From Rhodocyclaceae bacterium (GTDB taxonomy: Bacteria; Pseudomonadota; Gammaproteobacteria; Burkholderiales; Rhodocyclaceae), in NCBI GenBank assembly GCA_027310465.1, contig DAIDAU010000514.1, positions 270 to 64,269 of the forward strand: a stretch of 64,000 nt of DNA. Reading direction: 5' to 3'. The notes beneath the pieces were generated by a model that worked only from the letters and a program-made list of their open reading frames with translations, was not told the origin of the DNA and made no database searches. Positions 3,306 to 44,841 of this stretch are shown in pieces (positions within the stretch are counted from its first letter, which is position 1; every line of letters starts with the position of its first letter). Made by a program: the position numbers and the translations under genes.

Positions 3306-3322
3306 GCCGTCTGCGAAACGGC
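3306..3322 (-). promoter_or_regulatory. intercistronic hairpin, constant-loop family copy 4
   Basis: GCCGT/CTGCGAA/ACGGC, 25 nt upstream of the start at 3280; a second small hairpin GTGCG-AAAAG-CGCAC follows at 3324-3338. Confidence 0.6.
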
Positions 3323-15944: not shown

Positions 15945-16421
15945 ATGCATCCGTTCACGGTCTATTTGGCCGGTCCGATCACTGGGCTGACCTACGACGG
16001 TGCTACAGATTGGCGTGCAATCGCCAAGCAGAAACTCGACGAAGCGGGCATCCGTAGTCTGTCGCCGCTGCGCGCGCAGGAGCATCTGCGCGCCGTCGGC
16101 GTTCTGACCCTGGATTGCGCCGGCTATGGCGAAATGAGTGCGCTCACGACGCCGCGCGGCATCTTTGTCCGCGACAGGTTCGATGCGACGACCTGCAACG
16201 TCATCCTGGTGAACCTCTTGGGGGCGGGGCGGGTTTCGCAGGGTTCGATCTGCGAAATTTCGTGGGCGCATTGGTGCCGCATCCCGGTGGTCGCGGTGAT
16301 GGAGCAGCAGGGCAACCTGCACGATCACATCATGGTCACTGAGCAGATCGACTTCCGCGTCACCTCGCTTGACGAGGCGCTTACCGTCGTCAAGGCGATT
16401 GCCGACCGGAGCCAGCCGTGA
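15945..16421 (+). CDS. nucleoside 2-deoxyribosyltransferase-like protein
   Basis: N-terminal VYLAGPITG and later GSICEISWA, resembling the YLAGP and Glu-nucleophile motifs of that fold (from memory). Confidence 0.5.
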   Translation: MHPFTVYLAGPITGLTYDGATDWRAIAKQKLDEAGIRSLSPLRAQEHLRAVGVLTLDCAGYGEMSALTTPRGIFVRDRFDATTCNVILVNLLGAGRVSQGSICEISWAHWCRIPVVAVMEQQGNLHDHIMVTEQIDFRVTSLDEALTVVKAIADRSQP

Positions 16422-17620
16422 CCATCTCGATCCTCAACGCGCCGGCGTCCCAGCTCCCCAAGGTCGGCGCGGCGCTGTTCTCGCTCAACCCCTGGCCGAG
16501 CGTGTCGCAGGACATGGCGATGCTGCAGGCGATCTCCGCCACCATGGTGCGGATCGAGGTGCAGTGGGGCATGGTCGAGGCGACGCAGGGCGTCTACGCA
16601 GTACCCGATGCCACCGACGGCCGCATCGCGGCTGCCAAGGCGGCCGGCATGAGCGTCGTCATCCTGCTCGACTATTCCAACCCGATCTACACCGGCAACG
16701 TGTTCGCGCCGCCGACCACGAACACCCAGCTCACCGCGTGGGGCAATTTCTGCGCCTACATCGCCAGCCTCTACGCCGGACCCGGCGTGTTGTTCGAGGT
16801 CTGGAACGAGCCGAACAACCCGCAGTTCTGGTCGCCCGCGCCGAGCGCCTCGCAATACGGGACCGTGCTGGCGCAGGCCATCAGTGCGATCCGCGCCAAG
16901 GTGCCGTCGGCCCAGATCATCAGCGCCGGCATCGGCGATCTCGCCGCGCCCGGCATCAACGCTGCGCCCTTCATGCAGTCGGTCAACGCGGCCCAGCCCA
17001 ACATGGTCGGGTAGCTCGCCGGCCAGACGCTGCATCCCTACAATCCGGGCCAGCCCGAGACGCTGTTCGCCTACGTCGACAATTACCGCGCGACTGTGCC
17101 GTGCAGCTGCCCGATCGCCATCACCGAGTGGGGCTATTGCGCCTCCTGGCTCGCCGGCCAGGCCAACGCGCCGGAGACCCAGCGCGCCTACTGGGCCGCG
17201 CGCATGATCGGCGCTGCGATTTGCTACGGCATCACCGGGCTGTGCTTCTACAATCTGCGCGACACCGGCACCGACCAGACCAACGACCAGAACACGTTCG
17301 GCCTGTTCGACTTCGGCTTCAAGGCCAAGCCCGCGGTCACCGCGGTCGCCAACGTCATGAAGGCGCTCGCCGGGACCGAGAGCTATGACGCCGAGCGGCT
17401 CGCTAACGGCGTCTACCGCGTCACGCTGCGCAAGGCGAACGGCGGCATCACCAAGCTGCTCTGGACCGACGGCGCCGCGCTCAGCCACGACGAGCCGATG
17501 AACGCTCTCAGCGATGTCCACAACATCATGGGCAATGCTGATGGCTTCCACTTTTCCGGCGGTCATCTCCACATCGCGCTCAGCAAGGACTGGCCGATGC
17601 AGATCGTCTCGGGGAGCTGA
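16418..17620 (+). pseudogene. GH5-type glycoside hydrolase interrupted by one in-frame TAG (17012-17014)
   Basis: Track ORFs 16418-17014 and 17096-17620 are in the same frame with no other stop. LFEVWNEPN lies before the TAG; LHPY and AITEWG lie after it. Confidence 0.8.
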
Positions 17621-20160: not shown

Positions 20161-21796
20161 TCGCCCGAAGCGGCCGCGCAGACAGTTCCCGAAGAACGCT
20201 TCCCCCGCCATCGCGGTCGAACAGTCTCCCGCTGCCGTTGGCCACAACAACGGCCCGCACATCTCGACCTGGGGCGAGAGGGGGCCGAACCCGGCCCAGA
20301 TCCCTGCGACCGAGCTGCTCGGCTCGCACCGCCACGTCTGCCTCGTCGGCGGCGCCCGCTCCGGCAAGACCACCACCATCGTGCGCGCCATCGTGATGCG
20401 CGCGCTGCGCTTTCCGAACTCACGCCACGTGATCCTGCGCTTCCGCGCGATCCACGCCGACGCCTCGATCGCGCTCGACACCATGCCGAAGGTGCTGCGC
20501 AACTTCTTCCCCGGCCAGCGCTACAAGCACATCAAGTCGCCGCACAACCTGTTCCGCTTCCCCAACGGCAGCGAGATATGGATCGGCGGCCTCGACGACG
20601 AGCGGCGCGCCGACAAGATCCTCGGCGCCGAATACGCCACGATCTTCCTCAACGAGTGCAGCCAGATCAGCTGGTACTCGGCCAAGCTCGTCATGAGCCG
20701 CCTCGCGCAGGTGATCGAGGGCTGCGCGCAGCGCTTCTGGTGCGACATCAACCCGGTCGGCAAGAGCCACTGGACCAACCGCCTGTTCGGCGACAAGATC
20801 GACCCGGACGATCGCAAGGCGGTGGCGGACCCCGAGAACTACGCTCGGATGTTCGTCAACCCCAAGGACAACCAGCAGAACCTCGACAAGGGTTATTTCG
20901 ACTGGCTGTCGAAACAGAGCGGCAACTACCGCAAGCGCTTCTACGAGGGCCAGTATATCGACGAGGTCACCGGCGCGCTCTGGACGATCGACCTGATCGA
21001 GCAGATGCGTCTGCGGCCAGGCGACGAGCCGGCCGAGTTCGCCCGCACCGTCATCGCGATCGACCCGTCCGGTGCCGGCGAGCAGGGCGACAAGTCCGAC
21101 ATCGAGATGAAGCCGCGCAACGACGAGATCGGCATCATCGTCGCCTCGCTCGGCAATGATCAGCGCGCTTACCTGCGCGCCGACGTCTCGCTGGTCGGCA
21201 GCCCCGAGGAATGGGGCAGGCGCGCGGTCGCCGCCTTCTATCAGTTCGGCGCCGACCACATCATCGCCGAGGGCAATTTCGGCGGCGACATGGTCGCCTA
21301 CGTGATCCGGTCGATCGACCCCAACGTGCCGGTCCGCATCGTCCGTGCCAGCCAGGGCAAGCACATCCGCGCCGAGCCGATCTCGACGCTCTACACCAAC
21401 GATGCCGTGCGCCATGTCGGCGAGTTCAATGAGCTCGAGGACCAGCTCTGTGCTTTCACAACGCTCGGCTATGGCGGCCCGAAATCGCCGGATCGCGCCG
21501 ATGCGTGGATCTGGGCGGTGAACGACCTCTGCCTCGGCTCCGGGGCGAGCAACTGGCTCGAATATTACCGCCGTCTCGCCGAGGCTGCCGGAAACGAGGG
21601 CACGCCAGATCCGCAGCACGGCTACGAGATCACGCCACCGGCCGCGAAGGGCCATCGCGTGCTGGTGCCTGAAGGCGTCGGCTCGCTCTATCTGATCGAC
21701 GGCACGCACATGCTCGTCCCGGCAGACCGTATCGTCACGGTCTCTCCGGAAGACGCGGCCGCCTTCGGACGGCGCGGCTGGCAGGCCGTCACCTGA
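20147..21796 (+). CDS. terL: terminase large subunit
   Basis: Walker A VGGARSGKT, Walker B-like TIFLNECSQ, 549 aa; start ATG 20147 chosen inside the 577-aa track ORF. Confidence 0.9.
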   Translation: MPSSNRPKRPRRQFPKNASPAIAVEQSPAAVGHNNGPHISTWGERGPNPAQIPATELLGSHRHVCLVGGARSGKTTTIVRAIVMRALRFPNSRHVILRFRAIHADASIALDTMPKVLRNFFPGQRYKHIKSPHNLFRFPNGSEIWIGGLDDERRADKILGAEYATIFLNECSQISWYSAKLVMSRLAQVIEGCAQRFWCDINPVGKSHWTNRLFGDKIDPDDRKAVADPENYARMFVNPKDNQQNLDKGYFDWLSKQSGNYRKRFYEGQYIDEVTGALWTIDLIEQMRLRPGDEPAEFARTVIAIDPSGAGEQGDKSDIEMKPRNDEIGIIVASLGNDQRAYLRADVSLVGSPEEWGRRAVAAFYQFGADHIIAEGNFGGDMVAYVIRSIDPNVPVRIVRASQGKHIRAEPISTLYTNDAVRHVGEFNELEDQLCAFTTLGYGGPKSPDRADAWIWAVNDLCLGSGASNWLEYYRRLAEAAGNEGTPDPQHGYEITPPAAKGHRVLVPEGVGSLYLIDGTHMLVPADRIVTVSPEDAAAFGRRGWQAVT

Positions 21797-21822: not shown

Positions 21823-22482
21823 ATGCGTTCCTTCATGACGGTGCTGATGGCGATCCTGCTCGGAGCCGCAGCCTATTTCGGCATCACCCATGTCAGGGCG
21901 AGCTACGCGGCCGCGCCGAAGATGGCCGACGCCATGGTCTACGTCCGCATGAACGACAACGAGCATGGCAGCGGCGTCCACATCGGCGGCGGCTACGTCG
22001 TCACCGCGGCCCATGTCGCCGACGAGGTCTCGGAGCTTCCCAAGCTCCTGGCCGGCAAGGTCGCGCCGAAGCCTGCGCTCAAGGTCATCGACACCCTGTC
22101 CAAGGAGCATCGCGTCGAGGTGCTCTGGGTCAACCACACCTACGACATCGCGCTGCTCAAGATCGACAACCCCGGGACCGTCGCCTCGCGCCGGATCTCC
22201 TGCAGCAGCCTCAATGTCGGCCAGCGCCTGTCGTTCGACGGCAACCCGCTCAACCTCCGCAACATCACGATGTGGGGCAAGGTCGCCAGCACCGCGCCGA
22301 CCGAGATCGACCCGTGGAAGTCGGTGGCCGTGATTTCCGGCCAGCTCGTTCCCGGCATGAGCGGCGGCCCGGCCTACAATTCATCGGGTGACGTTGCCGG
22401 CATCAATGTCGGCATCGCCACCGGCTATGCGCTGAGCTTCATCGTGCCCAGCTCCACCGTCTGCCGCCTCCTGGCGCGCTGA
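21823..22482 (+). CDS. membrane-anchored trypsin-like (S1/DegP-type) serine protease
   Basis: N-terminal helix; catalytic triad contexts TAAHV, DIALLKI, GMSGGP. Confidence 0.8.
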   Translation: MRSFMTVLMAILLGAAAYFGITHVRASYAAAPKMADAMVYVRMNDNEHGSGVHIGGGYVVTAAHVADEVSELPKLLAGKVAPKPALKVIDTLSKEHRVEVLWVNHTYDIALLKIDNPGTVASRRISCSSLNVGQRLSFDGNPLNLRNITMWGKVASTAPTEIDPWKSVAVISGQLVPGMSGGPAYNSSGDVAGINVGIATGYALSFIVPSSTVCRLLAR

Positions 22483-22508: not shown

Positions 22509-24073
22509 TTGACCACTGTCAATATGACGCCGCCGGCTGATGGATCGCGCAACAACGTCGCCGTGAACGGCCGTACCTATGTCGGCAAGGTCGGCGTCAA
22601 CCAGCAGGTCCCCTCGTTCGACGCGCCGCTCCTCGAGGCCAATGGCTGGACCCGTGTCGCGACCGACGTCGCCAATGTCGGTCATACCGCCTACGGCCAG
22701 GACAACCAGCAGAACCTCGACAAGGGTTATTTCGACTGGCTGTCGAAACAGAGCGGCAACTACCGCAAGCGCTTCTACGAGGGCCAGTATATCGACGAGG
22801 TCACCGGCGCGCTCTGGACGATCGACCTGATCAGGCTTCGGCGCGACCTTGCCGGCCAGGAGCTTGGGAAGCTCCGAGACCTCGTCGGCGACATGGGCCG
22901 CGGTGACGACGTAGCCGCCGCCGATGTGGACGCCGCTGCCACGCGACCTCCGACGGCACGCTGACCAACGTCTCGCTGCTGTGCTCGGGTGGCGCGCTGA
23001 CCTCGGCCGCGATCAACAACGTCGCCTGGTATGGCGGCATTCCCTCGCCGATCAACACGCTCTACATCGCGATGCCGGTCACCAGCGTGCTGCCGCAGAC
23101 CACCGGCAATATCGGCGGCTCGTTCGCCGACCAGAGCTCCTGGGCCAGCGCCTTCGAGGTCGAGACCGACGCGCCCAACATCCAGTTCGGGCTCTTCACC
23201 GACAACGTCAAGAAGATCATGTTCCAGGTCGACGGCCAGTATGTCGACTTCACCGGCTCGACCGGTCCGGGCGCATCCGCCGACACCTATTTCAAGCTCG
23301 CCTTCGCCAGCGCCGGCATCCGCCGCATTCGCGTGCTGGTGCCGACCCATCCGTCCGGCGGCCCGGCGCTGATCAAGACCATCCGCACCGCGCCGCTCTA
23401 CAGCTTCTGGAAGCCGTGCCAGCGCGACGTGATCCGCGTCGGCTGGTCTGGCGACAGCTATTCGGAAGGCACCAACGGGGCAGGGACGGTCTACCCGATC
23501 CCGAACGCGAGCTGGCCGGTGATGACCTGCGAGCTGCTCGGCTTCCGCGACTGCCGCCAGCTCGCCGTCGGCGCGACCGGCTACCTGTCCGACGATGGCG
23601 GCCTGCGCTCCAAGATGCGCGACCAGATCCCGCGCTGGGCGGCGCAGGGCCCGTTCGACCTGCTGGTGTTCGCGCACGGCTACAACGACAGCTCGTTCTC
23701 GGCGAGCGCCATCACCGCCGAGGTGCTGTACGACCTGCAGCTCGTCCGCGCCAACTATCCGACCACCCCGATCGTCGTGCATGGCTGTCAGGCCGGCAAT
23801 TCCGGCCCCGGCGCCAGCCAGATCGCAACCGAGAACGCGATCGCGGCGGCCGTGGCCCAGTTCGCCGATCAGTTCGCGGTGTTCATGCCGGTCTCGACCG
23901 ACATCCCGACCTGGCTCAACGGCACCGGCTATTCCGGCGCCACCAACGCCAGCGGCAATTCCGACATCTATGTCGACCCGGACCACACCCACGCGACCCA
24001 GTCCGGCTACCAGTACCTCTCCTACCGCTCGGCGCGCGCCATCCGCAACGCGCTCGCCAGCATGATCAACTGA
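22509..24073 (+). pseudogene. virion fibre or spike-like protein with C-terminal SGNH/GDSL esterase, split by a 242-bp patch
   Basis: N-terminus is a paralog of the genes at 27036 and 29131 (VNGRxY...ANGW). C-terminal ORF 23072-24073 has GDSYSEG and DPDHTH blocks. The two halves are in different frames and rejoin in frame if 22699-22940 is removed. Confidence 0.8.
22699..22941 (+). repeat. chimeric patch: direct copy of terL 20865-20998 fused to inverted copy of protease 21966-22074
   Basis: Compared base by base by eye: 134/134 identical (direct) and 109/109 identical (reverse complement), abutting with no spacer. Confidence 0.9.
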
Positions 24074-24083
24074 CGGAGCTGTC

Positions 24084-24530
24084 ATGGACATCAAGGAAGC
24101 CGCAGCGCTCGCCGACGGCCTGATCGCTGGCTAGGTCGCCAAGCAGGACGCGATGTGGGGCGATGCCAACGATCGCGCCGATGCCTCCAAGGGCCAGATG
24201 CTGCTCGCCGCCTGCGCGCAGGCGAACGCGGTTGCAGGCGACATGGATCGCCTAACCTTGCTCGCCAGCGCGGATGCCGAAGACCGCGCCGCTGCCGAGA
24301 ACGTCTCGCGCGCGGACATCTTCGAGGAGTGTCGCGAGCACATCTACCCGAGCGACTGGTCCGGCTTCCGCGACTACGGCAGCGACGTCGCCAACCTCGT
24401 GGTCGCAGCCGCCTACCTGCGCAACGAGATCAAGCGCCGCATTGCGAGCGGCGAGAGCACGCACCGCGCCCCGCGTCCGGCCGACAAGCCGTACAACCCG
24501 GCGACCGGCCTGCCGAACACGCTCAACTAA
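24084..24530 (+). pseudogene. hypothetical protein; ORF from ATG 24084 interrupted by in-frame TAG at 24132 (or a shorter CDS from ATG 24153)
   Basis: GGAG RBS 6 nt before 24084. MDIKEAAALADGLIAG-TAG-VAKQDAMWGDANDRA... stays in one frame. Starting at 24153 instead would leave an unusual 80-nt gap. Confidence 0.5.
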
Positions 24531-27035: not shown

Positions 27036-28874
27036 ATGACCGTTATGCATCGGCTGATTGCGCCCGGTGGGTCCTCGCCCGTGACCGTCAATGGTCGGGT
27101 CTATAGTCCCTCTGCCGGATACGTCGATGCGCCGATCTTCGACTCCATGGTCCTGCAGGCCAATGGCTGGACGCTGCTGGCCGAAAGCGTCGCTGATGCG
27201 TCGCTCCCGAGCTTCTATCACGGCCAGCGCGTAGGCGAGCTCAGGTTTGATACGGATCTAGGTGAGGTGCTGGTCTGGGACGGGGCGCAGTGGCTCGATC
27301 CCCTTGTGGGAGCGAATGCCTGGTGGCCTCAATATACCGACATGGCTCTGCAATTCGGCAGTCGGTATCAGATCGGCGGCGTCGCCAAGAGCATTTCCGA
27401 CCTCACGTTCGCCCGCGCCAGCACCGCCGAAATCATTCTTGGCGGCTCCCGTCTGTCGTTCGCAAGCGGTCAGCCACGCATCAACAACGGCGCGATTTAT
27501 CTCGATAGCGTCGGCGCGACCAACCTGATTTCCAGCCCGGAGGACCACTCTACCGGATGGACCAATGCCCAGGTCACCGTCGGCGCGTTGGCGAACCTCG
27601 GCGGCGGGACAGTGCCGTTCTATCCCGTGATGGAAACGGCGGTAACGAACGTTCACACGCATCGCCGGACAATTACGACCGCTGCTAGTGCATTTGGTGG
27701 CTACGGCTATATCGCACCGACGCTGGGTCGAACCAAATTTCGGATTGAACTGACCGCGAACACAGGCAACGGTCTTCGGTTTGAGTTTGATCTTAGCGGT
27801 AGCGGCAGCGTGACGACTCCGATTGGAACGGGAGCCTCGCCAGCGACGGCGGTTTCTTACGGTGTGATCCAACTCGCCGATGGGGTGTGGCTCTGGTATA
27901 TCACCGGCACGTGGCCAGCCGACAGTCACACCTCGATCCAGTTCTGGATGTATCTGCGCGACGCGACCGGCGCCACGTCCTATGCTGGCGATATCGCAAT
28001 GGGAGCGTATTACGGGCCCGTGATGCTTAACGCGTCGTCGACGGTGGTGGACTATACGGCGAGCACGCGCGCTGCGGAGAGTCTTTCGATCCCCTTGACG
28101 GACGGCCCTTGGAGCTTCCGTGTCCGCAATGTCAGCGCCGACGAATGGCGCGGCATGGTGACGGTCTCTGGCGGGGCCTACGCGCTGACGCCGCCGAGCG
28201 GGTCGACGACCATCACGAAGGTCGAGGGCTACCAGCTCGACTACATGCACGATTTCACAGCAGACGCCGACACGCTGCCCGGTGACATCGGAACTGGTTG
28301 GGATTGTCGAGGCGGCTATGTGGCCAGCTACCCGCTCCCCACCAACACAAAGGTGCATATTAGCGGCGGCAAGGTCGTTACCGATGTTGGCGATGTTTGC
28401 TATATGACTCGCGTCTTTTCGAGCCCCGTTCACTACATGGAGCAAGTCGTTTCATGGACTGACACGGGAGGCGCCGGGATCGAGGCAACGGGCGCGATGT
28501 TTGCGACTGCCGATCCCAACATCATTAGCAATATGCCACATCATACTCTCTCCCGCGACGTGACGACGATCGGTCAGCGCATCAATGGCGGTACGATCTC
28601 GACACTGCAAGCTCTGAATTTCACGCCGAACCCGGCAGAGGATGGCACGCAATTCCCGTGGCGGCACTCCACAACAGCGAGCGGAACGGTCGTCGAGGCC
28701 GTCCGCAACAGCGAGCGGCAAACATATTCCGACGCGAGCTTGGGCGACGCTGGCGCAACGCCGGTTGGAACGCGGGCGGTTTGGGAGATTTACCAGCCAG
28801 ACGCGGCGGCCGGTAACACGCTGTCGGTCTACAAGGTGGCCGCACGCTATCGGCCTGTGATTTTGGCTGCGTAA
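27036..28874 (+). CDS. large fibre or receptor-binding-like protein with ANGW-type N-terminal module (612 aa)
   Basis: MTVMHRLIAPGGSSPVTVNGRVYSPSAGYVDAPIFDSMVLQANGW...GELRFDTDLGEVLVWDGAQW; lower G+C by eye; TTG 27030 is an alternative start. Confidence 0.75.
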   Translation: MTVMHRLIAPGGSSPVTVNGRVYSPSAGYVDAPIFDSMVLQANGWTLLAESVADASLPSFYHGQRVGELRFDTDLGEVLVWDGAQWLDPLVGANAWWPQYTDMALQFGSRYQIGGVAKSISDLTFARASTAEIILGGSRLSFASGQPRINNGAIYLDSVGATNLISSPEDHSTGWTNAQVTVGALANLGGGTVPFYPVMETAVTNVHTHRRTITTAASAFGGYGYIAPTLGRTKFRIELTANTGNGLRFEFDLSGSGSVTTPIGTGASPATAVSYGVIQLADGVWLWYITGTWPADSHTSIQFWMYLRDATGATSYAGDIAMGAYYGPVMLNASSTVVDYTASTRAAESLSIPLTDGPWSFRVRNVSADEWRGMVTVSGGAYALTPPSGSTTITKVEGYQLDYMHDFTADADTLPGDIGTGWDCRGGYVASYPLPTNTKVHISGGKVVTDVGDVCYMTRVFSSPVHYMEQVVSWTDTGGAGIEATGAMFATADPNIISNMPHHTLSRDVTTIGQRINGGTISTLQALNFTPNPAEDGTQFPWRHSTTASGTVVEAVRNSERQTYSDASLGDAGATPVGTRAVWEIYQPDAAAGNTLSVYKVAARYRPVILAA

Positions 28875-29677: not shown

Positions 29678-32600
29678 ATGTCCACCTTTGCAGCGCCCGC
29701 ATCGGCCACGTCGGGCCTGCAGGGCTATGACCTCGAAGGCGCCGATCGTCCGGCGCGTCGCAAGGTCAGTAAGGGCGAGGCGCGCTACGGCGACAACGCC
29801 AAGACCAAGCAGTGCATGTCCTGCGTGATGTTCCTTGCGCCGGACGCCTGCACCAAGGTCACGGGCAAGATCGCCCCGACCGGCCACTGCAAGTTCTACT
29901 ACGGCTTTGCCAACGTCGAGAAGGCGGCCGGTACCGCCTCGTTCCGCGCCGCCGGCATCGCGCTGGTCGAGAAGGAATACGGCAAGGCCCTGTTCATCAA
30001 GCGCAGCGGCGAGGGCGACCACGCCGGCGAATGGTGCTTCCCGGGCGGCGGCATCGACGGCAGCGAGACGCCGCTTGAGGCGGCGCTCCGCGAGGCCGTC
30101 GAGGAAGTCGGCTTCACGGTCCCGCACGATGGCGACCTCACCACGTTCGTTGCCACCATCGAGAGCAACGGCGTCGAGTTCACGACCTTCTTCCAGCGCG
30201 TCGACAAGGCGTTCGAGGCGAAGCTCAACGAGGAGCACACCGACTATCGCTGGGAGCCGCTGGAGAGGCCGCCGCAGCCGCTACATCCCGGCGTGCGCGC
30301 CGTGCTGCCGATGGTGGTCTCGGCCGCCACCGAGCTGACGCTCAAGAGCGCCAAGCGCACGCTCTACGTCAGGCGCCCGCTGATCAACGGCGAGCACCTC
30401 GTGAACTGGGCCAAGGCCAACGGGTTCGCGACCACGCTCCCCGACACCGACATGCATGTGACGATCGCCTACTCGAAAGAGGCGGTCGACTGGGACGCGG
30501 TACCGCGGTCATCACTCCCCATCCTACGGATCGAAGGCGGCGGCCGTGAGCTTGCCCGCTTCGGAAAAGACGGCGAAGCCGTCGTGCTCAAGCTCGAGTC
30601 TGAGGAGCTTGCCGCACGTCATCGGGAGATCAGGCAGGCCGGCGCCTCTTGGGACTGGCCCTACTACAAGCCGAACGTGACGCTGACTTATGCGGGCAAG
30701 GACATCTCGCTCGACGAGCTTGCGGCATTTGACGGCGTTCTCGAGTTCGGACCCGAAGCCTGGGCCGAAGTGCAAGACAACTACATGGACAGCGTCGTCG
30801 AAAAGCACGACGGAGTGGAGCAACATATGGACAATCTTTCCCTGTTTGTGCCGGTGCTGAAGGTCGACGCCAAGCAGCGCATGGTCTACGGCACGGCAGT
30901 CATCGAGCAGCCCGATCGCACCAACGAGATCTTCGACTACGCGAGCTCGAAGCCCGAGTTCGAGAAGTGGTCGAGCGAGGTCGAGAAGGCTTCCGGCGGC
31001 AAGAGCCTCGGCAACGTGCGCTCGATGCACGGCAAGGTCGCGGCCGGCAAGCTCACCGACATCGGCTTCGACGACGAGCGCAAGGCGATCGACGTCGCCG
31101 CCAAGGTGGTCGACGAGGAGGAGTGGCAGAAGGTCCAGGAGGGCGTCTACACCGGCTTCTCGATCGGCGGCCGCTATCTGAAGAAGTGGCAGGACGGCGC
31201 CTACAAGCGCTATACCGCAGCGCCCAGCGAGGTCTCGCTGGTCGATCTGCCGTGCGTCAAGGACGCCACCTTCGCGCTGATCAAGGCCGACGGCAGCGAG
31301 GAGCTGCGCAAGTTCGCCTCCACCGAGCAGGCTGTCGAGGACGGCAAGACCGAGCCCGTCGAGATCACCAACGACATGGTCGCCAAGCGCGCCGAGGAGC
31401 TGGCCAAGGTCTCCGGCAAGCCCTGGGCCGATCACGTCGACGAGGCGCGCGCCGCGCTCGAAGCCGAGGCCGTCGCCAAGGCGGCCGAGAAGGATGCCAA
31501 GCCTGCGGACGGCGAGGGCGAGGTCGCGAAGGGCACTGAGGCCGAGGTTATCGCTCCGGTGGTCACCGTCGATGTCGATGGCGCCAAGCTCGCCGACACG
31601 GTCGTCAAGGGCGTCGACGACGACATCGAGCAGGTCTGGACCTCAAAGCGCCTGCCCGGCAAATCGTTCGCCAAGAAGGCGGAGCTGCGCGAGGCACTGA
31701 ATGCGCTCGACATCGAGGAGGAGGCGGCGCGGAAAGCTGCGCCCGTGCTCGACCTGATCAAGGGCGTCACCAATCCCGAGGCCAAGGCCGATCCGAAGGC
31801 CGATCCGAAGGCCGAGGTCAAGCCGGAAGGCGAGGGCGCGGTCGAAAAGCGCGAGTTCTCCGACAGCGAGCGCGAGAAGGACGCGAAGAGTGGCGCAGCC
31901 GAAGCCGACGGCTCCTATCCGATCGAGAACGCGACGGACCTGGAGAACGCGGTCAAGGCCTACGGCCGCTCCAAGAACAAGGCCAAGACCAAGCGCCACA
32001 TCATCAAGCGCGCCCGCGCGCTCGGTCTCACCGACAAGCTCCCCGAGGGCTGGGTGAAGAAGGTGGCCGACGGCGAGGATCTCGCCAAGGGCGCCTCGCT
32101 CTATCTGGTCGCAGACCTCATGTATATGCTGAGCTGCGTCGAGAGCCTCGAGGAGCGCGCAGAGCTCTCCGCCGAGGTGTTCGGCGGCATCGACGTGCCC
32201 AAGGAGCTGACCGATCGCTTCGGCAGCCTGCTGGTCGATCTCGGCGACATCACCGCCGACATTCTCGACGTCGTGCTGGCCGACACCCGCAACGAGGAGG
32301 CCGCCGAGGCCGCTGCGAAGGCGGCTCCGGTCATGGACCTCTTCAAGCGCGGCGCCCGCAACTCGGCCTCCGACAAGGCCCTGATCAAGCAGGCGCACGA
32401 CATCCTGGTCACGCTCGACAAGGATGCCTGCGCCGGCGTCATGGGCAAGGCGGAAGGCGGTGATCTGGAGAAGGCGGCCAAGGTCGAGGCGCTCTCGTCC
32501 GAGGTCGAGCGTCTCACCGGCGCGCTGGAGATCGAGAAGTCCACCAACAGCAAGGCGCTGGCGGCGATCGCCGAAGGCGTCGAGGCGCTGAAGAGCCAGC

Positions 32601-32833
32601 TCGAAAAGGTCAACGGCGACAACAAGGAGCTGGCGGAGAAGCTGGAGAAGGCGCAGGGCGACCTGTCGGCGATCCGCTCGACGCCGCTGCCTGCGCCCGC
32701 CGGTCCCTACCGCGTGGTCGAGAAGACGGTCGATACCCTGACCGTCGGACAGACCGGCGAGGTTGACGAGACGACGCTGCGCAAGAACGCAGAGCTCGCC
32801 AAGCTCAACCGCACCATCTGGGCCGGTCGGTAA
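29678..32833 (+). CDS. 1051-aa polyvalent head protein: Cys cluster + Nudix + 2H-phosphoesterase-like + XkdF-type prohead protease-like + scaffold-like tail
   Basis: Nudix box GGGIDGSETPLEAALREAVEEVG (aa 123-145). MHVTIAYS (aa 259) and KPNVTLTY (aa 331). LFVPVLKVDAKQRMVYGTAVIEQPDRTNEIFDY...GNVRSMHG. Acidic, coiled-coil C-terminal half with DGSYPIENATDLENAVKAYGR. Confidence 0.75.
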   Translation: MSTFAAPASATSGLQGYDLEGADRPARRKVSKGEARYGDNAKTKQCMSCVMFLAPDACTKVTGKIAPTGHCKFYYGFANVEKAAGTASFRAAGIALVEKEYGKALFIKRSGEGDHAGEWCFPGGGIDGSETPLEAALREAVEEVGFTVPHDGDLTTFVATIESNGVEFTTFFQRVDKAFEAKLNEEHTDYRWEPLERPPQPLHPGVRAVLPMVVSAATELTLKSAKRTLYVRRPLINGEHLVNWAKANGFATTLPDTDMHVTIAYSKEAVDWDAVPRSSLPILRIEGGGRELARFGKDGEAVVLKLESEELAARHREIRQAGASWDWPYYKPNVTLTYAGKDISLDELAAFDGVLEFGPEAWAEVQDNYMDSVVEKHDGVEQHMDNLSLFVPVLKVDAKQRMVYGTAVIEQPDRTNEIFDYASSKPEFEKWSSEVEKASGGKSLGNVRSMHGKVAAGKLTDIGFDDERKAIDVAAKVVDEEEWQKVQEGVYTGFSIGGRYLKKWQDGAYKRYTAAPSEVSLVDLPCVKDATFALIKADGSEELRKFASTEQAVEDGKTEPVEITNDMVAKRAEELAKVSGKPWADHVDEARAALEAEAVAKAAEKDAKPADGEGEVAKGTEAEVIAPVVTVDVDGAKLADTVVKGVDDDIEQVWTSKRLPGKSFAKKAELREALNALDIEEEAARKAAPVLDLIKGVTNPEAKADPKADPKAEVKPEGEGAVEKREFSDSEREKDAKSGAAEADGSYPIENATDLENAVKAYGRSKNKAKTKRHIIKRARALGLTDKLPEGWVKKVADGEDLAKGASLYLVADLMYMLSCVESLEERAELSAEVFGGIDVPKELTDRFGSLLVDLGDITADILDVVLADTRNEEAAEAAAKAAPVMDLFKRGARNSASDKALIKQAHDILVTLDKDACAGVMGKAEGGDLEKAAKVEALSSEVERLTGALEIEKSTNSKALAAIAEGVEALKSQLEKVNGDNKELAEKLEKAQGDLSAIRSTPLPAPAGPYRVVEKTVDTLTVGQTGEVDETTLRKNAELAKLNRTIWAGR

Positions 32834-33216
32834 TGTCCGGCAACGACAAGCGCAACCTCCCCGACGACAGCGCGGGGAGGAAGCGCATGCCGATGGCGAG
32901 CGGCCTCCTGGATTACTTCCCGGATGCCCTCGCCGAGGTCGCCTTCGTCTCGTGGTTCGGCAACGAGAAGCACAATCCCGGCGAGCCGCTGCATCACGCC
33001 CGCGGCAAGTCGATGGACCATCCCGACTGCATCATGCGTCACATGACGCAGCGCGGCGGCTTCGACATCGTCGAGATCGCCGGGGTCCAGTACAAGATCC
33101 GCCACTCCGCCGCGATGGCGTGGCGTGCGCTCGCCCTCCTGCAGGAGGAGCTTGAGCAGGAACACGGTCTGCCTCTGCCGCGCGGTGCGCGGATCGAAGA
33201 GGCGACCAAGGCTTAA
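32833..33216 (+). CDS. dATP/dGTP diphosphohydrolase-domain-like (DUF5664-like) protein
   Basis: TAATG coupling; LLDYFPDALAEVAFVSWFGNEKHNPGEPLHH...HPDCIMRHM...HSAAMAWRALALLQ fits that family as I recall it. Confidence 0.5.
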   Translation: MSGNDKRNLPDDSAGRKRMPMASGLLDYFPDALAEVAFVSWFGNEKHNPGEPLHHARGKSMDHPDCIMRHMTQRGGFDIVEIAGVQYKIRHSAAMAWRALALLQEELEQEHGLPLPRGARIEEATKA

Positions 33217-43734: not shown

Positions 43735-44171
43735 CCAAAGAGCTGTCCATCCTGGAGTTTGTCGCGCTGACGGCAACGCTCGGTCTCGAGGTCGAGCACG
43801 CCGCGCATGAGGCGCTCGAAGGCTGCGGCGACATGGTCGAGAAAGAGGCCAAGCGCGTCATCGGCACCTACGACTATGGCTGGCCGCAGCTCGCGGACTC
43901 CACCAAGAAGGACCGCGTCGACCATGGCTACCCGGCCAACGAGCCGCTGTTGCGCTCGGGCCATATGCGCGACAGCATCGAGCACAAGGTCGAGCATGAC
44001 GAGGTGCAGATCGGATCTAACGAGCAGGTCGCAGTCTGGCAGGAACTCGGCACGCCGACGATCCCGCCGCGCTCGTTCCTGGAAGGGGCCTTGAAGAAGA
44101 AAACGCCAGAGGTGCTCGACAAGATCGGGCGCACCGTGGTCGGCAAGCTGTCCGGGACGGAGCGGACCTAG
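43731..44171 (+). CDS. HK97 gp10-like tail or neck component
   Basis: ATGA coupling; ...GYPANEPLLRSGHMRDSIEHKV...GTPTIPPRSFL. Confidence 0.55.
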   Translation: MTKELSILEFVALTATLGLEVEHAAHEALEGCGDMVEKEAKRVIGTYDYGWPQLADSTKKDRVDHGYPANEPLLRSGHMRDSIEHKVEHDEVQIGSNEQVAVWQELGTPTIPPRSFLEGALKKKTPEVLDKIGRTVVGKLSGTERT

Positions 44172-44632
44172 CCGGCGACGGCCTTGATCAGGAACGCGAA
44201 GACCAGGGTGGCGGCCGCAATCGCCCCCATCCCGACGATGGCGAGCGGCCAGCGGATGAACCACGGCAATCGCGGCGGCGACTTGGGCGGCTGATCGGGC
44301 TGGCTCGCCAGCTTGATGATCTGCGGAACCGCCTCCGGGGCGACCTGCTGGATCGGTTCTCCCAGACGACCCGCGCACTCGATCACCGCGCCGATGGCGA
44401 TCGAGGCGGGGACCGCAAACCACTCGTTGATGACGTTCTGGCGGGCCAGGAGCGCGTGCGCGGCGAACTCGACGTTGGTGCCGACCCCGGACGTCGCGCC
44501 GATGTAGGCGAACGACAGGCGGTCTGCCGATCCGGTCTGGAGCTGGGCGATCCGCTGGATCGGATCGCGAGACGAGCCGATCTTATGCCGGCCGCTCTGG
44601 TCGGCGATCACATAGACGAACGACCCGGTCAT
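44168..44632 (-). CDS. GIY-YIG/T5orf172-like nuclease domain protein with C-terminal membrane helix
   Basis: GGGGGGA-ATG at 44632; FVYVIADQSGRHKIGSSRDPIQRIAQLQTGS...NEWF; alternative start at 44746. Confidence 0.6.
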   Translation of the reverse strand: MTGSFVYVIADQSGRHKIGSSRDPIQRIAQLQTGSADRLSFAYIGATSGVGTNVEFAAHALLARQNVINEWFAVPASIAIGAVIECAGRLGEPIQQVAPEAVPQIIKLASQPDQPPKSPPRLPWFIRWPLAIVGMGAIAAATLVFAFLIKAVAG

Positions 44633-44841
44633 TCCCCCCGTAGAACCTGCGGGTGAGGTCCTGGTGAACCTGCCGAAGTCGCTCGCTCCGAAACTGACGC
44701 CGGGCCTGATGCCGAAGAGGCGCGGGCCGGTGAAGAAAAATCTCATATAGAAGCCCTTTGTGCTATGTTCTTGGGGCCGAGTGCCGGCAGCGCGCCAACG
44801 CTACCGACACTCTAACCACCCTGCGCGTAGGAGCGCTCAGA

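Follow-up and report, generated by a model that had tools for sequence, protein, structure and literature searches.

A frame-breaking patch copied from two neighbouring genes in a predicted esterase gene of a mine-tailings phage

How does a phage gene come to carry exact copies of two of its neighbours, joined end to end and in opposite orientations? The question is raised by contig DAIDAU010000514.1 (assembly GCA_027310465.1, deposited as Rhodocyclaceae bacterium), of which we analysed a stretch of 64,000 nt, here called the window. In it, a predicted esterase gene of a phage is split by a short chimeric tract of terminase and protease sequence. All positions refer to the window; the patch denotes positions 22699–22941, and its junctions are J1 (22698/22699), J2 (22832/22833) and J3 (22941/22942). 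We favour, with a probability of roughly 0.6, the reading that the patch is a real and recent insertion in the phage genome that arose by serial template switching, of the type described as fork stalling and template switching or microhomology-mediated break-induced replication (FoSTeS/MMBIR), and that it pseudogenised the esterase gene. The features of the locus are collected in Table 1.

String comparison established the composition of the patch. Positions 22699–22832 are identical to positions 20865–20998 of the large terminase gene (134 of 134 nt, direct orientation), a match that cannot be extended at either end, and positions 22832–22941 are the exact reverse complement of 21966–22075 in a trypsin-like protease gene (110 of 110 nt). 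An earlier note on this DNA, made from its letters, had described a chimeric patch of two neighbouring genes splitting an SGNH esterase gene. That description is right: the terminase copy stands as it was given, and the protease copy, reported there as 109 of 109 nt between 22833–22941 and 21966–22074, extends by one base. This base, the C at 22832, pairs with 22075 and is common to both copies, which therefore overlap by 1 nt in a matched tract of 243 nt, with a net insertion of 242 nt. The two copies do abut without a spacer, as had been stated, and it is the extent of the patch that needed correction. Self-comparison of the whole window, which the note had proposed as a check, recovered both matches and no second patch of this type, by BLASTN and by a census of exact repeats of at least 16 nt. 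The next-longest exact repeats measure 20 nt, so chance can be excluded as the origin of copies of 134 and 110 nt, and the 243-nt patch as a unit occurs once in the window. Both source genes are retained intact. The donor segments lie 624–733 nt (protease) and 1701–1834 nt (terminase) upstream of the insertion site, such that donors and acceptor all fall within 2.1 kb. Zero divergence had been taken as the sign of a very recent event; the copies are indeed exact, and we likewise read the insertion as evolutionarily recent.

Table 1. Coordinates of the patch, its sources, the interrupted esterase gene and associated reading frames (window positions).
Feature	Position	Strand	Remarks
Source template 1, within large-terminase gene	20865..20998	+	gene from ATG 20147 to stop 21796; Terminase_3, Terminase_6N, Terminase_6C
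Source template 2, within trypsin-like serine protease gene	21966..22075	+	gene 21823-22482; Trypsin_2
Esterase 5′ fragment: N-terminal 'ANGW' module and linker	22524..22698	+	alternative TTG start at 22509
Chimeric open reading frame, 146 aa: module, 44 terminase-derived residues, antisense-protease codons, TGA	22524..22964	+	annotated gene in NCBI source record
GCCA at departure point of target	22696..22699	+	repeated at patch end; 4-nt microhomology of return junction
Patch part 1, direct copy of terminase segment 20865-20998, in the terminase's own frame	22699..22832	+	134 nt exact
Patch part 2, inverted copy of protease segment 21966-22075	22832..22941	-	110 nt exact; overlaps part 1 at base 22832
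Second GCCA, last 4 nt of protease-derived copy	22938..22941	+	end of patch
Esterase 3′ fragment: beta-sandwich and SGNH hydrolase body, 376 aa, CE2-like fold; GDS, GYND and DxxH blocks	22943..24073	+	out of frame with 5′ fragment
Downstream open reading frame, 148 aa, decaying	24084..24530	+	GAG->TAG at 24132, TAC->TAA at 24416 in some samples; no Pfam or PHROG match
Paralogous carrier of ANGW module, 612 aa	27036..28874	+	shared N-terminal module
Third carrier of ANGW module, 97 aa	29131..29424	+	shared N-terminal module

With the patch present, the frame that opens at ATG 22524 (or TTG 22509) first reads codons in the terminase frame, then antisense-protease codons, and closes at a TGA at 22962–22964, the stop that the earlier note had read from the sequence. 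The source record, an NCBI contig of 68,564 nt, annotates the resulting chimeric open reading frame (ORF) together with a 333-aa esterase remnant, and a homology search with the chimeric 146-aa product returned only itself. Removal of 242 nt (22699–22940 or 22700–22941, owing to a 1-nt 'A' ambiguity) yields an open frame of 440 aa, or 435 aa from ATG 22524, that ends at 24073, bearing out the claim that such a deletion rejoins the two halves in frame. The repaired protein has 42 homologues in a large protein collection, including a hypothetical protein of Bradyrhizobium phage BDU-MI-1; some are named lysophospholipase L1-like esterase by the Joint Genome Institute (JGI), and the best are 43–65% identical. 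Aligned with 12 homologues, the repaired ORF is gap-free over the excision point (...HTAYG-H-ATSDGTLT... against the consensus ...PPTVAVxATSDGTLT...). This collinearity indicates that the insertion removed no target bases.

The N-terminal ~45 residues of the interrupted protein (...VNGR.Y...FD...L.ANGW) also open the products of two other genes, at 27036 (612 aa) and 29131 (97 aa), a sharing that had been recognized beforehand and that we recover. The patch is located in a short linker, one codon ahead of the conserved enzyme body, and therefore separates the shared N-terminal module from the enzyme. In a related 107-kb contig, the gene order is terminase, a small gene, an intact 711-aa GDSL protein, portal and a NUDIX/Acb1 fusion, and in a podovirus-like contig the esterase homologue lies among structural genes. 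Together, the shared module and the gene position make it reasonable to regard the esterase as a putative virion-associated protein. The 612-aa carrier of the module occurs as three protein variants across the metagenome runs described below (single-nucleotide polymorphisms (SNPs) at 27307 and 28587), which suggests ongoing variation in a putative receptor-binding protein.

We looked for closer relatives with an uninterrupted gene. Exact matches to the repaired 435-aa and 440-aa proteins were absent among 15 billion proteins, peptide patterns retrieved no such relative from IMG/VR or GTDB representative genomes, and the exact 31-nt pattern just left of the patch retrieved none from JGI metagenomes, IMG/VR or GTDB. 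The comparison with related phages, also proposed in the note, thus gave a partial answer: 12 homologues are gap-free across the site and one relative has an intact GDSL gene, but no near-identical uninterrupted phage was found. A homology search with the terminase listed no fragments, and a scan around the patch gave no meaningful promoter or terminator.

The 376-aa body downstream of the patch was modelled with AlphaFold2 at a mean predicted local distance difference test score (pLDDT) of 93.8. Foldseek places the CE2 esterases 2waa, 2wao and 2wab and Est2A (4dev) at the top of its matches (E about 1e-16, template-modelling (TM) score 0.6–0.7), folds that combine an N-terminal beta-sandwich with a C-terminal SGNH domain (alpha/beta/alpha). 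Residues G234-D235-S236, G310-Y311-N312-D313 and D411...H414, corresponding to blocks I (GDS), III (GxND) and V (DxxH), are invariant in 13 sequences, and in body numbering D171, S172, N248, D249, D347 and H350 do not vary among 30. A match to Pfam PF13472 is precomputed on the esterase product. The model and the conserved blocks identify the interrupted gene as that of a CE2-like SGNH/GDSL esterase with predicted activity. The protein resembles the CE2 SGNH enzymes 2waa, 2wao, 2wab and 4dev in its two-domain fold of beta-sandwich and SGNH domain and in the conservation of the GDS, GxND and DxxH blocks, but shares only 12–16% sequence identity with them and has an extra N-terminal module common to two other phage genes. 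A sequence-profile search of the Protein Data Bank with the esterase gave only transcription activator-like (TAL) effector matches, which were discarded as spurious.

The junctions record how the segments were joined. At the departure junction, the target ends ...TACGGCCA and the terminase copy starts A/GGAC, which follows ...CCCCA in the source, with 1 nt shared (A). At the internal switch, the terminase copy ends ...GATC and ...GCGC precedes the start of the protease copy in its source, again with 1 nt shared (the overlapping C). At the return junction, the last bases of the protease copy are ...GCTGCCA, and the target, whose own sequence before the site is ...CGGCCA, continues with CGCG, with 4 nt shared (GCCA). 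Read as plus-strand synthesis, the junction microhomologies are 1, 1 and 4 nt; read the other way, they are 1, 1 and 1 nt. At all three junctions, zero target bases were lost and zero untemplated bases were added. The patch has no terminal inverted repeats, the best end-to-end match being 9 of 14, and this absence, like that of a transposase, agrees with what the earlier note had reported; its further statement that there is no target-site duplication has to be qualified by the 4-nt direct repeat GCCA at 22696–22699 and 22938–22941. As the right-hand GCCA belongs to the protease-derived copy, we read the repeat as junction microhomology, and a 4-bp target-site duplication was rejected as the simplest reading.

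Is the patch present in the phage itself? The phage of the window is absent from the phage GenBank collection, IMG/VR and GTDB representatives. It is found at 99.95–100% identity in the Logan assemblies of runs SRR5161788, SRR5161794, SRR5161795 and SRR5161805, two of which are sediment and groundwater metagenomes from a tailings dam of a copper mine in Brazil (PMC7327174). Logan assembled each run separately at k=31, dropped singleton k-mers and holds no 31-mer repeated within a run's contigs (PMC12424806), which means that a repeat must end the flanking contigs exactly 30 nt (k−1) inside it. Contigs of SRR5161788 (31,672 nt) and SRR5161795 end at 20894, or 20865 + 29, and this end requires a second predecessor of the terminase segment, that is, J1. 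Contigs of SRR5161788 (45,274 nt) and SRR5161794 (45,244 nt) begin at 22912, or 22941 − 29, and join the last 30 nt of the patch straight to the esterase body, such that J3 is read through. As these contigs start at 22912 and not at 22938 (after GCCA), the un-inserted junction (...TACGGCCACGCGACC...) must be absent or minor and the patch allele dominant. Private substitutions and one indel distinguish the runs from the window and from one another, indicating that a single data set has not been counted several times. On the evidence of the contig breaks, the novel junctions are present in the reads of at least three runs.

These observations bear directly on whether the patch is an artefact, that is, an in-vitro chimera formed by amplification or ligation, or an assembler mis-join, with no counterpart in the phage population. 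Chimeras formed by multiple-displacement amplification usually link neighbouring stretches of sequence in inverted orientation. J2 appears in the deposited assembly alone, and all data come from one study site, which would fit such an origin. Against it stand the agreement of two different assemblers, the breaks of the graph exactly k−1 nt inside both repeats in at least three runs with differing private SNPs, and the fact that Logan discards singleton k-mers; moreover, in SRR5161788 and SRR5161794 it is the patch path that was extended, not the un-inserted path. A random chimera would neither rejoin the target at the very base where it left nor come to be the consensus of several libraries. 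An assembler error or random library chimera is thus very unlikely, and we regard the artefact as largely refuted and give it very little weight. The same per-run breaks 30 nt inside both repeats make the assembly chimera, which had been listed earlier among the candidate explanations, unlikely.

What process could have generated the patch? Hallmarks of FoSTeS/MMBIR include nearby retained donors, direct or inverted segments, little homology at junctions and a return to the original template (PMC2621351). The patch displays the structural features of serial template switching, in that the copies come from the same genome with their source kept, the segments are joined directly and the donors lie near the breakpoint. 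The phage genome spans at least 79 kb, judged from two Logan contigs, and if the fragments were random the chance that both donors lie so near would be roughly (4/79)^2, about 0.003. In the proposed course of events, a plus-strand 3′ end would leave its template at ...TACGGCCA (22699), jump back 1.83 kb into the terminase gene, re-prime there on minimal homology and copy 134 nt. A strand switch would follow, with 109–110 nt of the protease gene copied in the opposite direction, after which the terminal GCCA would re-anneal at the exact departure point and normal synthesis would resume. Synthesis of low processivity, switching template three times within one episode, would in this way add 242 nt, lose no target sequence and leave the sources intact. 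It is the end product alone that can be read from the DNA, and we infer the template-switch steps from it. Template-switching filler DNA was the first-listed explanation in the earlier note, and the nearby retained donors, the combination of direct and inverted segments and the exact return favour it.

Several points weigh against this reading. J2 depends on the deposited NCBI assembly, all runs are from one site, and the k-mer set also fits two other segment orders, one of them with the stretch between the 110-nt repeats inverted; it is in the deposited order alone that terminase and protease stay whole and that the synteny of relatives is reproduced. The ancestral uninterrupted state is one that we infer from homologues 43–62% identical and not from a near-identical intact phage. 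Two junctions out of three share only 1 nt, which chance would supply equally well, and the 4-nt GCCA would occur by coincidence with a chance of roughly 1/64–1/256. As the junction homologies are short and the GCCA is possibly coincidental, end-joining is compatible with the sequence alone.

End-joining capture of two fragments is accordingly the main rival, although we consider it unlikely. Here, Ku/LigD-dependent non-homologous end-joining (NHEJ) or another ligation would have inserted phage fragments of 134 bp and 109 bp in tandem, one of them flipped, into a break in the linker. The 0–1 nt of homology at two junctions fits ligation, and NHEJ in Sinorhizobium meliloti captures linear DNA in either orientation, occasionally with two cassettes in tandem (PMC6379672). 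The closest phage relatives infect or reside in Bradyrhizobium, and the cultured relative BDU-MI-1 has a gene annotated as a LigD-type ligase. However, an event with no base lost or added at three junctions would be unusual for unfaithful NHEJ, the origin of both fragments from within 2 kb of the break would have a probability of about 0.003 if they were random, and the 4-nt GCCA match at the return junction would be left unexplained; nor was a Ku or LigD homologue found in the window or its left flank. Much less probable is filler made by reverse transcription, in which cDNA of a polycistronic terminase–protease–esterase transcript would bridge the break by means of a host or phage reverse transcriptase. 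Sources and target do belong to one co-oriented gene block that is probably co-transcribed, and a preprint describes group II intron-like reverse transcriptases that can perform microhomology-mediated end joining with template switching (bioRxiv 10.1101/2022.03.14.484287). Yet no reverse-transcriptase (RVT) domain is found in any window ORF of at least 290 aa, 243 nt were copied with zero errors, and nothing requires an RNA intermediate.

The least probable explanation is a mobile or programmed element, whether like a miniature inverted-repeat transposable element (MITE), a variable region of a diversity-generating retroelement (DGR), an intron or intein, or a reversible esterase switch. The patch sits exactly at a domain boundary and is flanked by the GCCA repeat, and its precise excision would restore the gene, all of which would fit such an element. 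But the patch lacks terminal inverted repeats and is single as a unit, and both halves are coding pieces of neighbouring genes. Pfam scans of 56 window ORFs detected no reverse transcriptase, transposase, Ku, LigD or recombinase, and insertion sequences, MITEs and transposons were rejected on the lack of inverted repeats and transposase and on the single occurrence of the 243-nt unit. The terminase-derived copy has 0 mismatches and all 35 of its 35 adenines unchanged, which rules out the adenine-directed mutagenesis of a DGR, an assignment for which an RVT domain is also missing from all ORFs of at least 290 aa. An Rfam gathering scan of the window finds only a tRNA-Asn and no intron RNA, and a self-splicing intron or intein is further contradicted by a patch that shifts the frame and consists of neighbouring coding sequence. 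An 'unknown copy-and-paste mechanism', which had also been suggested, finds no support, with no terminal inverted repeats, no second copy of the unit and no transposase or reverse transcriptase nearby. The same Pfam scans found only two nuclease-type matches, the terminase nuclease domain and one T5orf172/MUG113 ORF, where five nuclease genes had been counted before. It is, lastly, a long shot that the patch is the product of a recurrent phage or host process, in which a low-processivity polymerase or primase-polymerase acts at breaks that favour the module boundaries of receptor-binding or depolymerase genes. If such a process did operate, the pasting of short nearby pieces would give phage tail genes a raw mechanism by which linkers are created and domains shuffled.

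We return to serial template switching as the preferred origin of the patch and consider what the insertion means for the esterase. With the module uncoupled from the enzyme, the frame shifted and a stop at 22962–22964, the esterase gene is now a pseudogene, and its body is predicted to be untranslated or poorly translated. The nearest in-frame ATG, at 23072, is without a visible ribosome-binding site, and initiation there would cost the 376-aa body its first 43 residues and with them part of the beta-sandwich. Decay extends beyond the patch, with more lesions in some samples over the same 1.8 kb. SRR5161788 has an additional C (+1) at 23233, a frameshift in the esterase remnant. In the downstream 148-aa ORF, the GAG->TAG change at 24132 is present in the window and in SRR5161794, the latter with the extra TAC->TAA at 24416, and the ORF is intact in SRR5161788. 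A contig of SRR5161805 starts at 24133, which suggests that this run is polymorphic at 24132. The 148-aa ORF corresponds to positions 1174–1620 of locus L001 and 1242–1505 of locus L005. Four of the 12 differences between samples fall within 1.5 kb at the esterase and its neighbour. This clustering is suggestive of relaxed selection on both after the first hit, and low-coverage sequencing or assembly error is also possible. The secondary decay suggests that the enzyme is dispensable in that habitat, and the patched gene is a naturally occurring loss-of-function allele of a CE2-like esterase, apparently one borne on the particle.

The patch also leaves structural marks on the genome. It creates a 134-bp direct repeat with the copies 1.7 kb apart and a perfect 110-bp inverted repeat with the copies 756 nt apart, and the latter is predicted to fold into a single long stem once transcribed. 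Both repeats are possible substrates for inversion or lethal deletion, and the transcript may, conjecturally, be open to RNase III-type cleavage. Among the substitutions that distinguish the samples, 6 of 11 are G:C<->T:A transversions (10615, 24132, 24416, 27307, 35521 and 39162). Such a pattern is the signature of 8-oxoguanine damage, and it could stem from oxidative stress in copper tailings or from an artefact of library preparation at low coverage.

The phage is large, related to Bradyrhizobium phages and sampled in copper-mine-tailings metagenomes. Its relative BDU-MI-1 codes for a protein of 200 aa with the annotation 'ATP-dependent DNA ligase clustered with Ku protein, LigD' (KY940711.1, 98790–99392; L016, 5145–5747), about 6 kb from its esterase homologue; tblastn found no homologue of this protein in the window (best E 0.14). 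Self-BLAST of a 25-kb stretch of BDU-MI-1 revealed no further patches, and the same search of related Logan contigs was uninformative because these hold no repeated 31-mers. On the plus strand of the window, a 1051-aa ORF at 29678–32833 fuses a NUDIX hydrolase, an Acb1 domain directed against the cyclic-oligonucleotide-based antiphage signalling system (CBASS) (E 6.5e-35) and an XkdF-type S78 prohead-protease-like domain. The NUDIX–Acb1 fusion is kept at the same place, after the portal, in the related 107-kb contig (L008), and the ORF may be an anti-defence enzyme within a head-module polyprotein. An adjoining ORF (32833–33216, +) has the N-terminal domain of a dATP/dGTP diphosphohydrolase (PF18909, MazZ-like, E 1e-9), and the ORF at 15945–16421 (+) is nucleoside 2-deoxyribosyltransferase-like; the two hint at nucleotide-pool manipulation or DNA base modification by the phage. 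The ORF at 16418–17014 (+; 198 aa), in the early/middle region upstream of the terminase, has a weak match to glycoside hydrolase family 5 (cellulase; E 2e-6). The T5orf172/MUG113 (GIY-YIG-related) ORF at 44168–44746 is encoded on the minus strand, opposite to the otherwise co-oriented tail-gene block that contains it, and has the appearance of a selfish or nuclease-type gene that was inserted there. Within the early-gene block on the minus strand, the hairpin-forming motif GCCGTCTGCGAAACGGC occurs three times (1141–1160, 2894–2913 and 3306–3322), and a 19-nt motif over a ribosome-binding site and start codon occurs twice (1118–1136 and 2361–2379). Both are probably shared terminators or translation-initiation cassettes.

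Phage mosaicism is usually credited to homologous or 'relaxed' recombination, or to a vaguely defined 'illegitimate' recombination of which clear scars are rare. The patch is a fully traceable scar, with zero divergence from its sources and junctions defined to the base. It shows that natural phage populations, too, acquire and keep complex multi-template insertions of the kind described for human copy-number variants (CNVs) and cancer genomes. Such patches fragment de Bruijn-graph assemblies through their exact repeats and may be mistaken for chimeras. A distant parallel is found in the copy-choice insertions of RNA viruses (influenza haemagglutinin, pestiviruses), in which a polymerase jump pastes a piece of another gene, taken from the virus's own genome or from host RNA, into a coding region. 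Those insertions are made by an RNA polymerase and are usually gain-of-function inserts kept by selection, whereas the insert described here breaks a reading frame in a DNA phage.

Closer comparisons come from DNA repair. In the templated insertions or filler DNA reported from yeast and cancer genomes, a break site likewise receives an insert from nearby DNA, inverted copies included (PMC8421209, PMC11724301); the yeast inserts described are mostly about 5–34 bp and made by foldback beside the break (PMC11724301), compared with 110–134 nt from 0.6–1.8 kb away in the phage. NHEJ capture in Sinorhizobium meliloti (Dupuy et al., PMC6379672) offers an alphaproteobacterial setting, insertion in either orientation and occasional tandem double inserts, but the DNA captured there was exogenous, supplied as cassettes with compatible ends, and ends were frequently deleted, whereas the phage segments are endogenous and local and were joined without loss or addition. 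The closest likeness is to FoSTeS/MMBIR (Hastings et al. 2009, PMC2621351), a type of switching proposed earlier for amplification at lac in E. coli: segments are copied from nearby with their sources kept, direct and inverted pieces abut with short or no homology, and synthesis returns to its template. The patch differs from that model in scale, with ~0.1 kb per segment and less than 2 kb of travel compared with kilobases to megabases in human CNVs, in having only 1 nt of homology at two junctions, and in its setting, a phage genome with recombination-driven replication. The patch is thus a new and unusually legible case of a known class of mutation in a natural phage population, and not a new kind of element.

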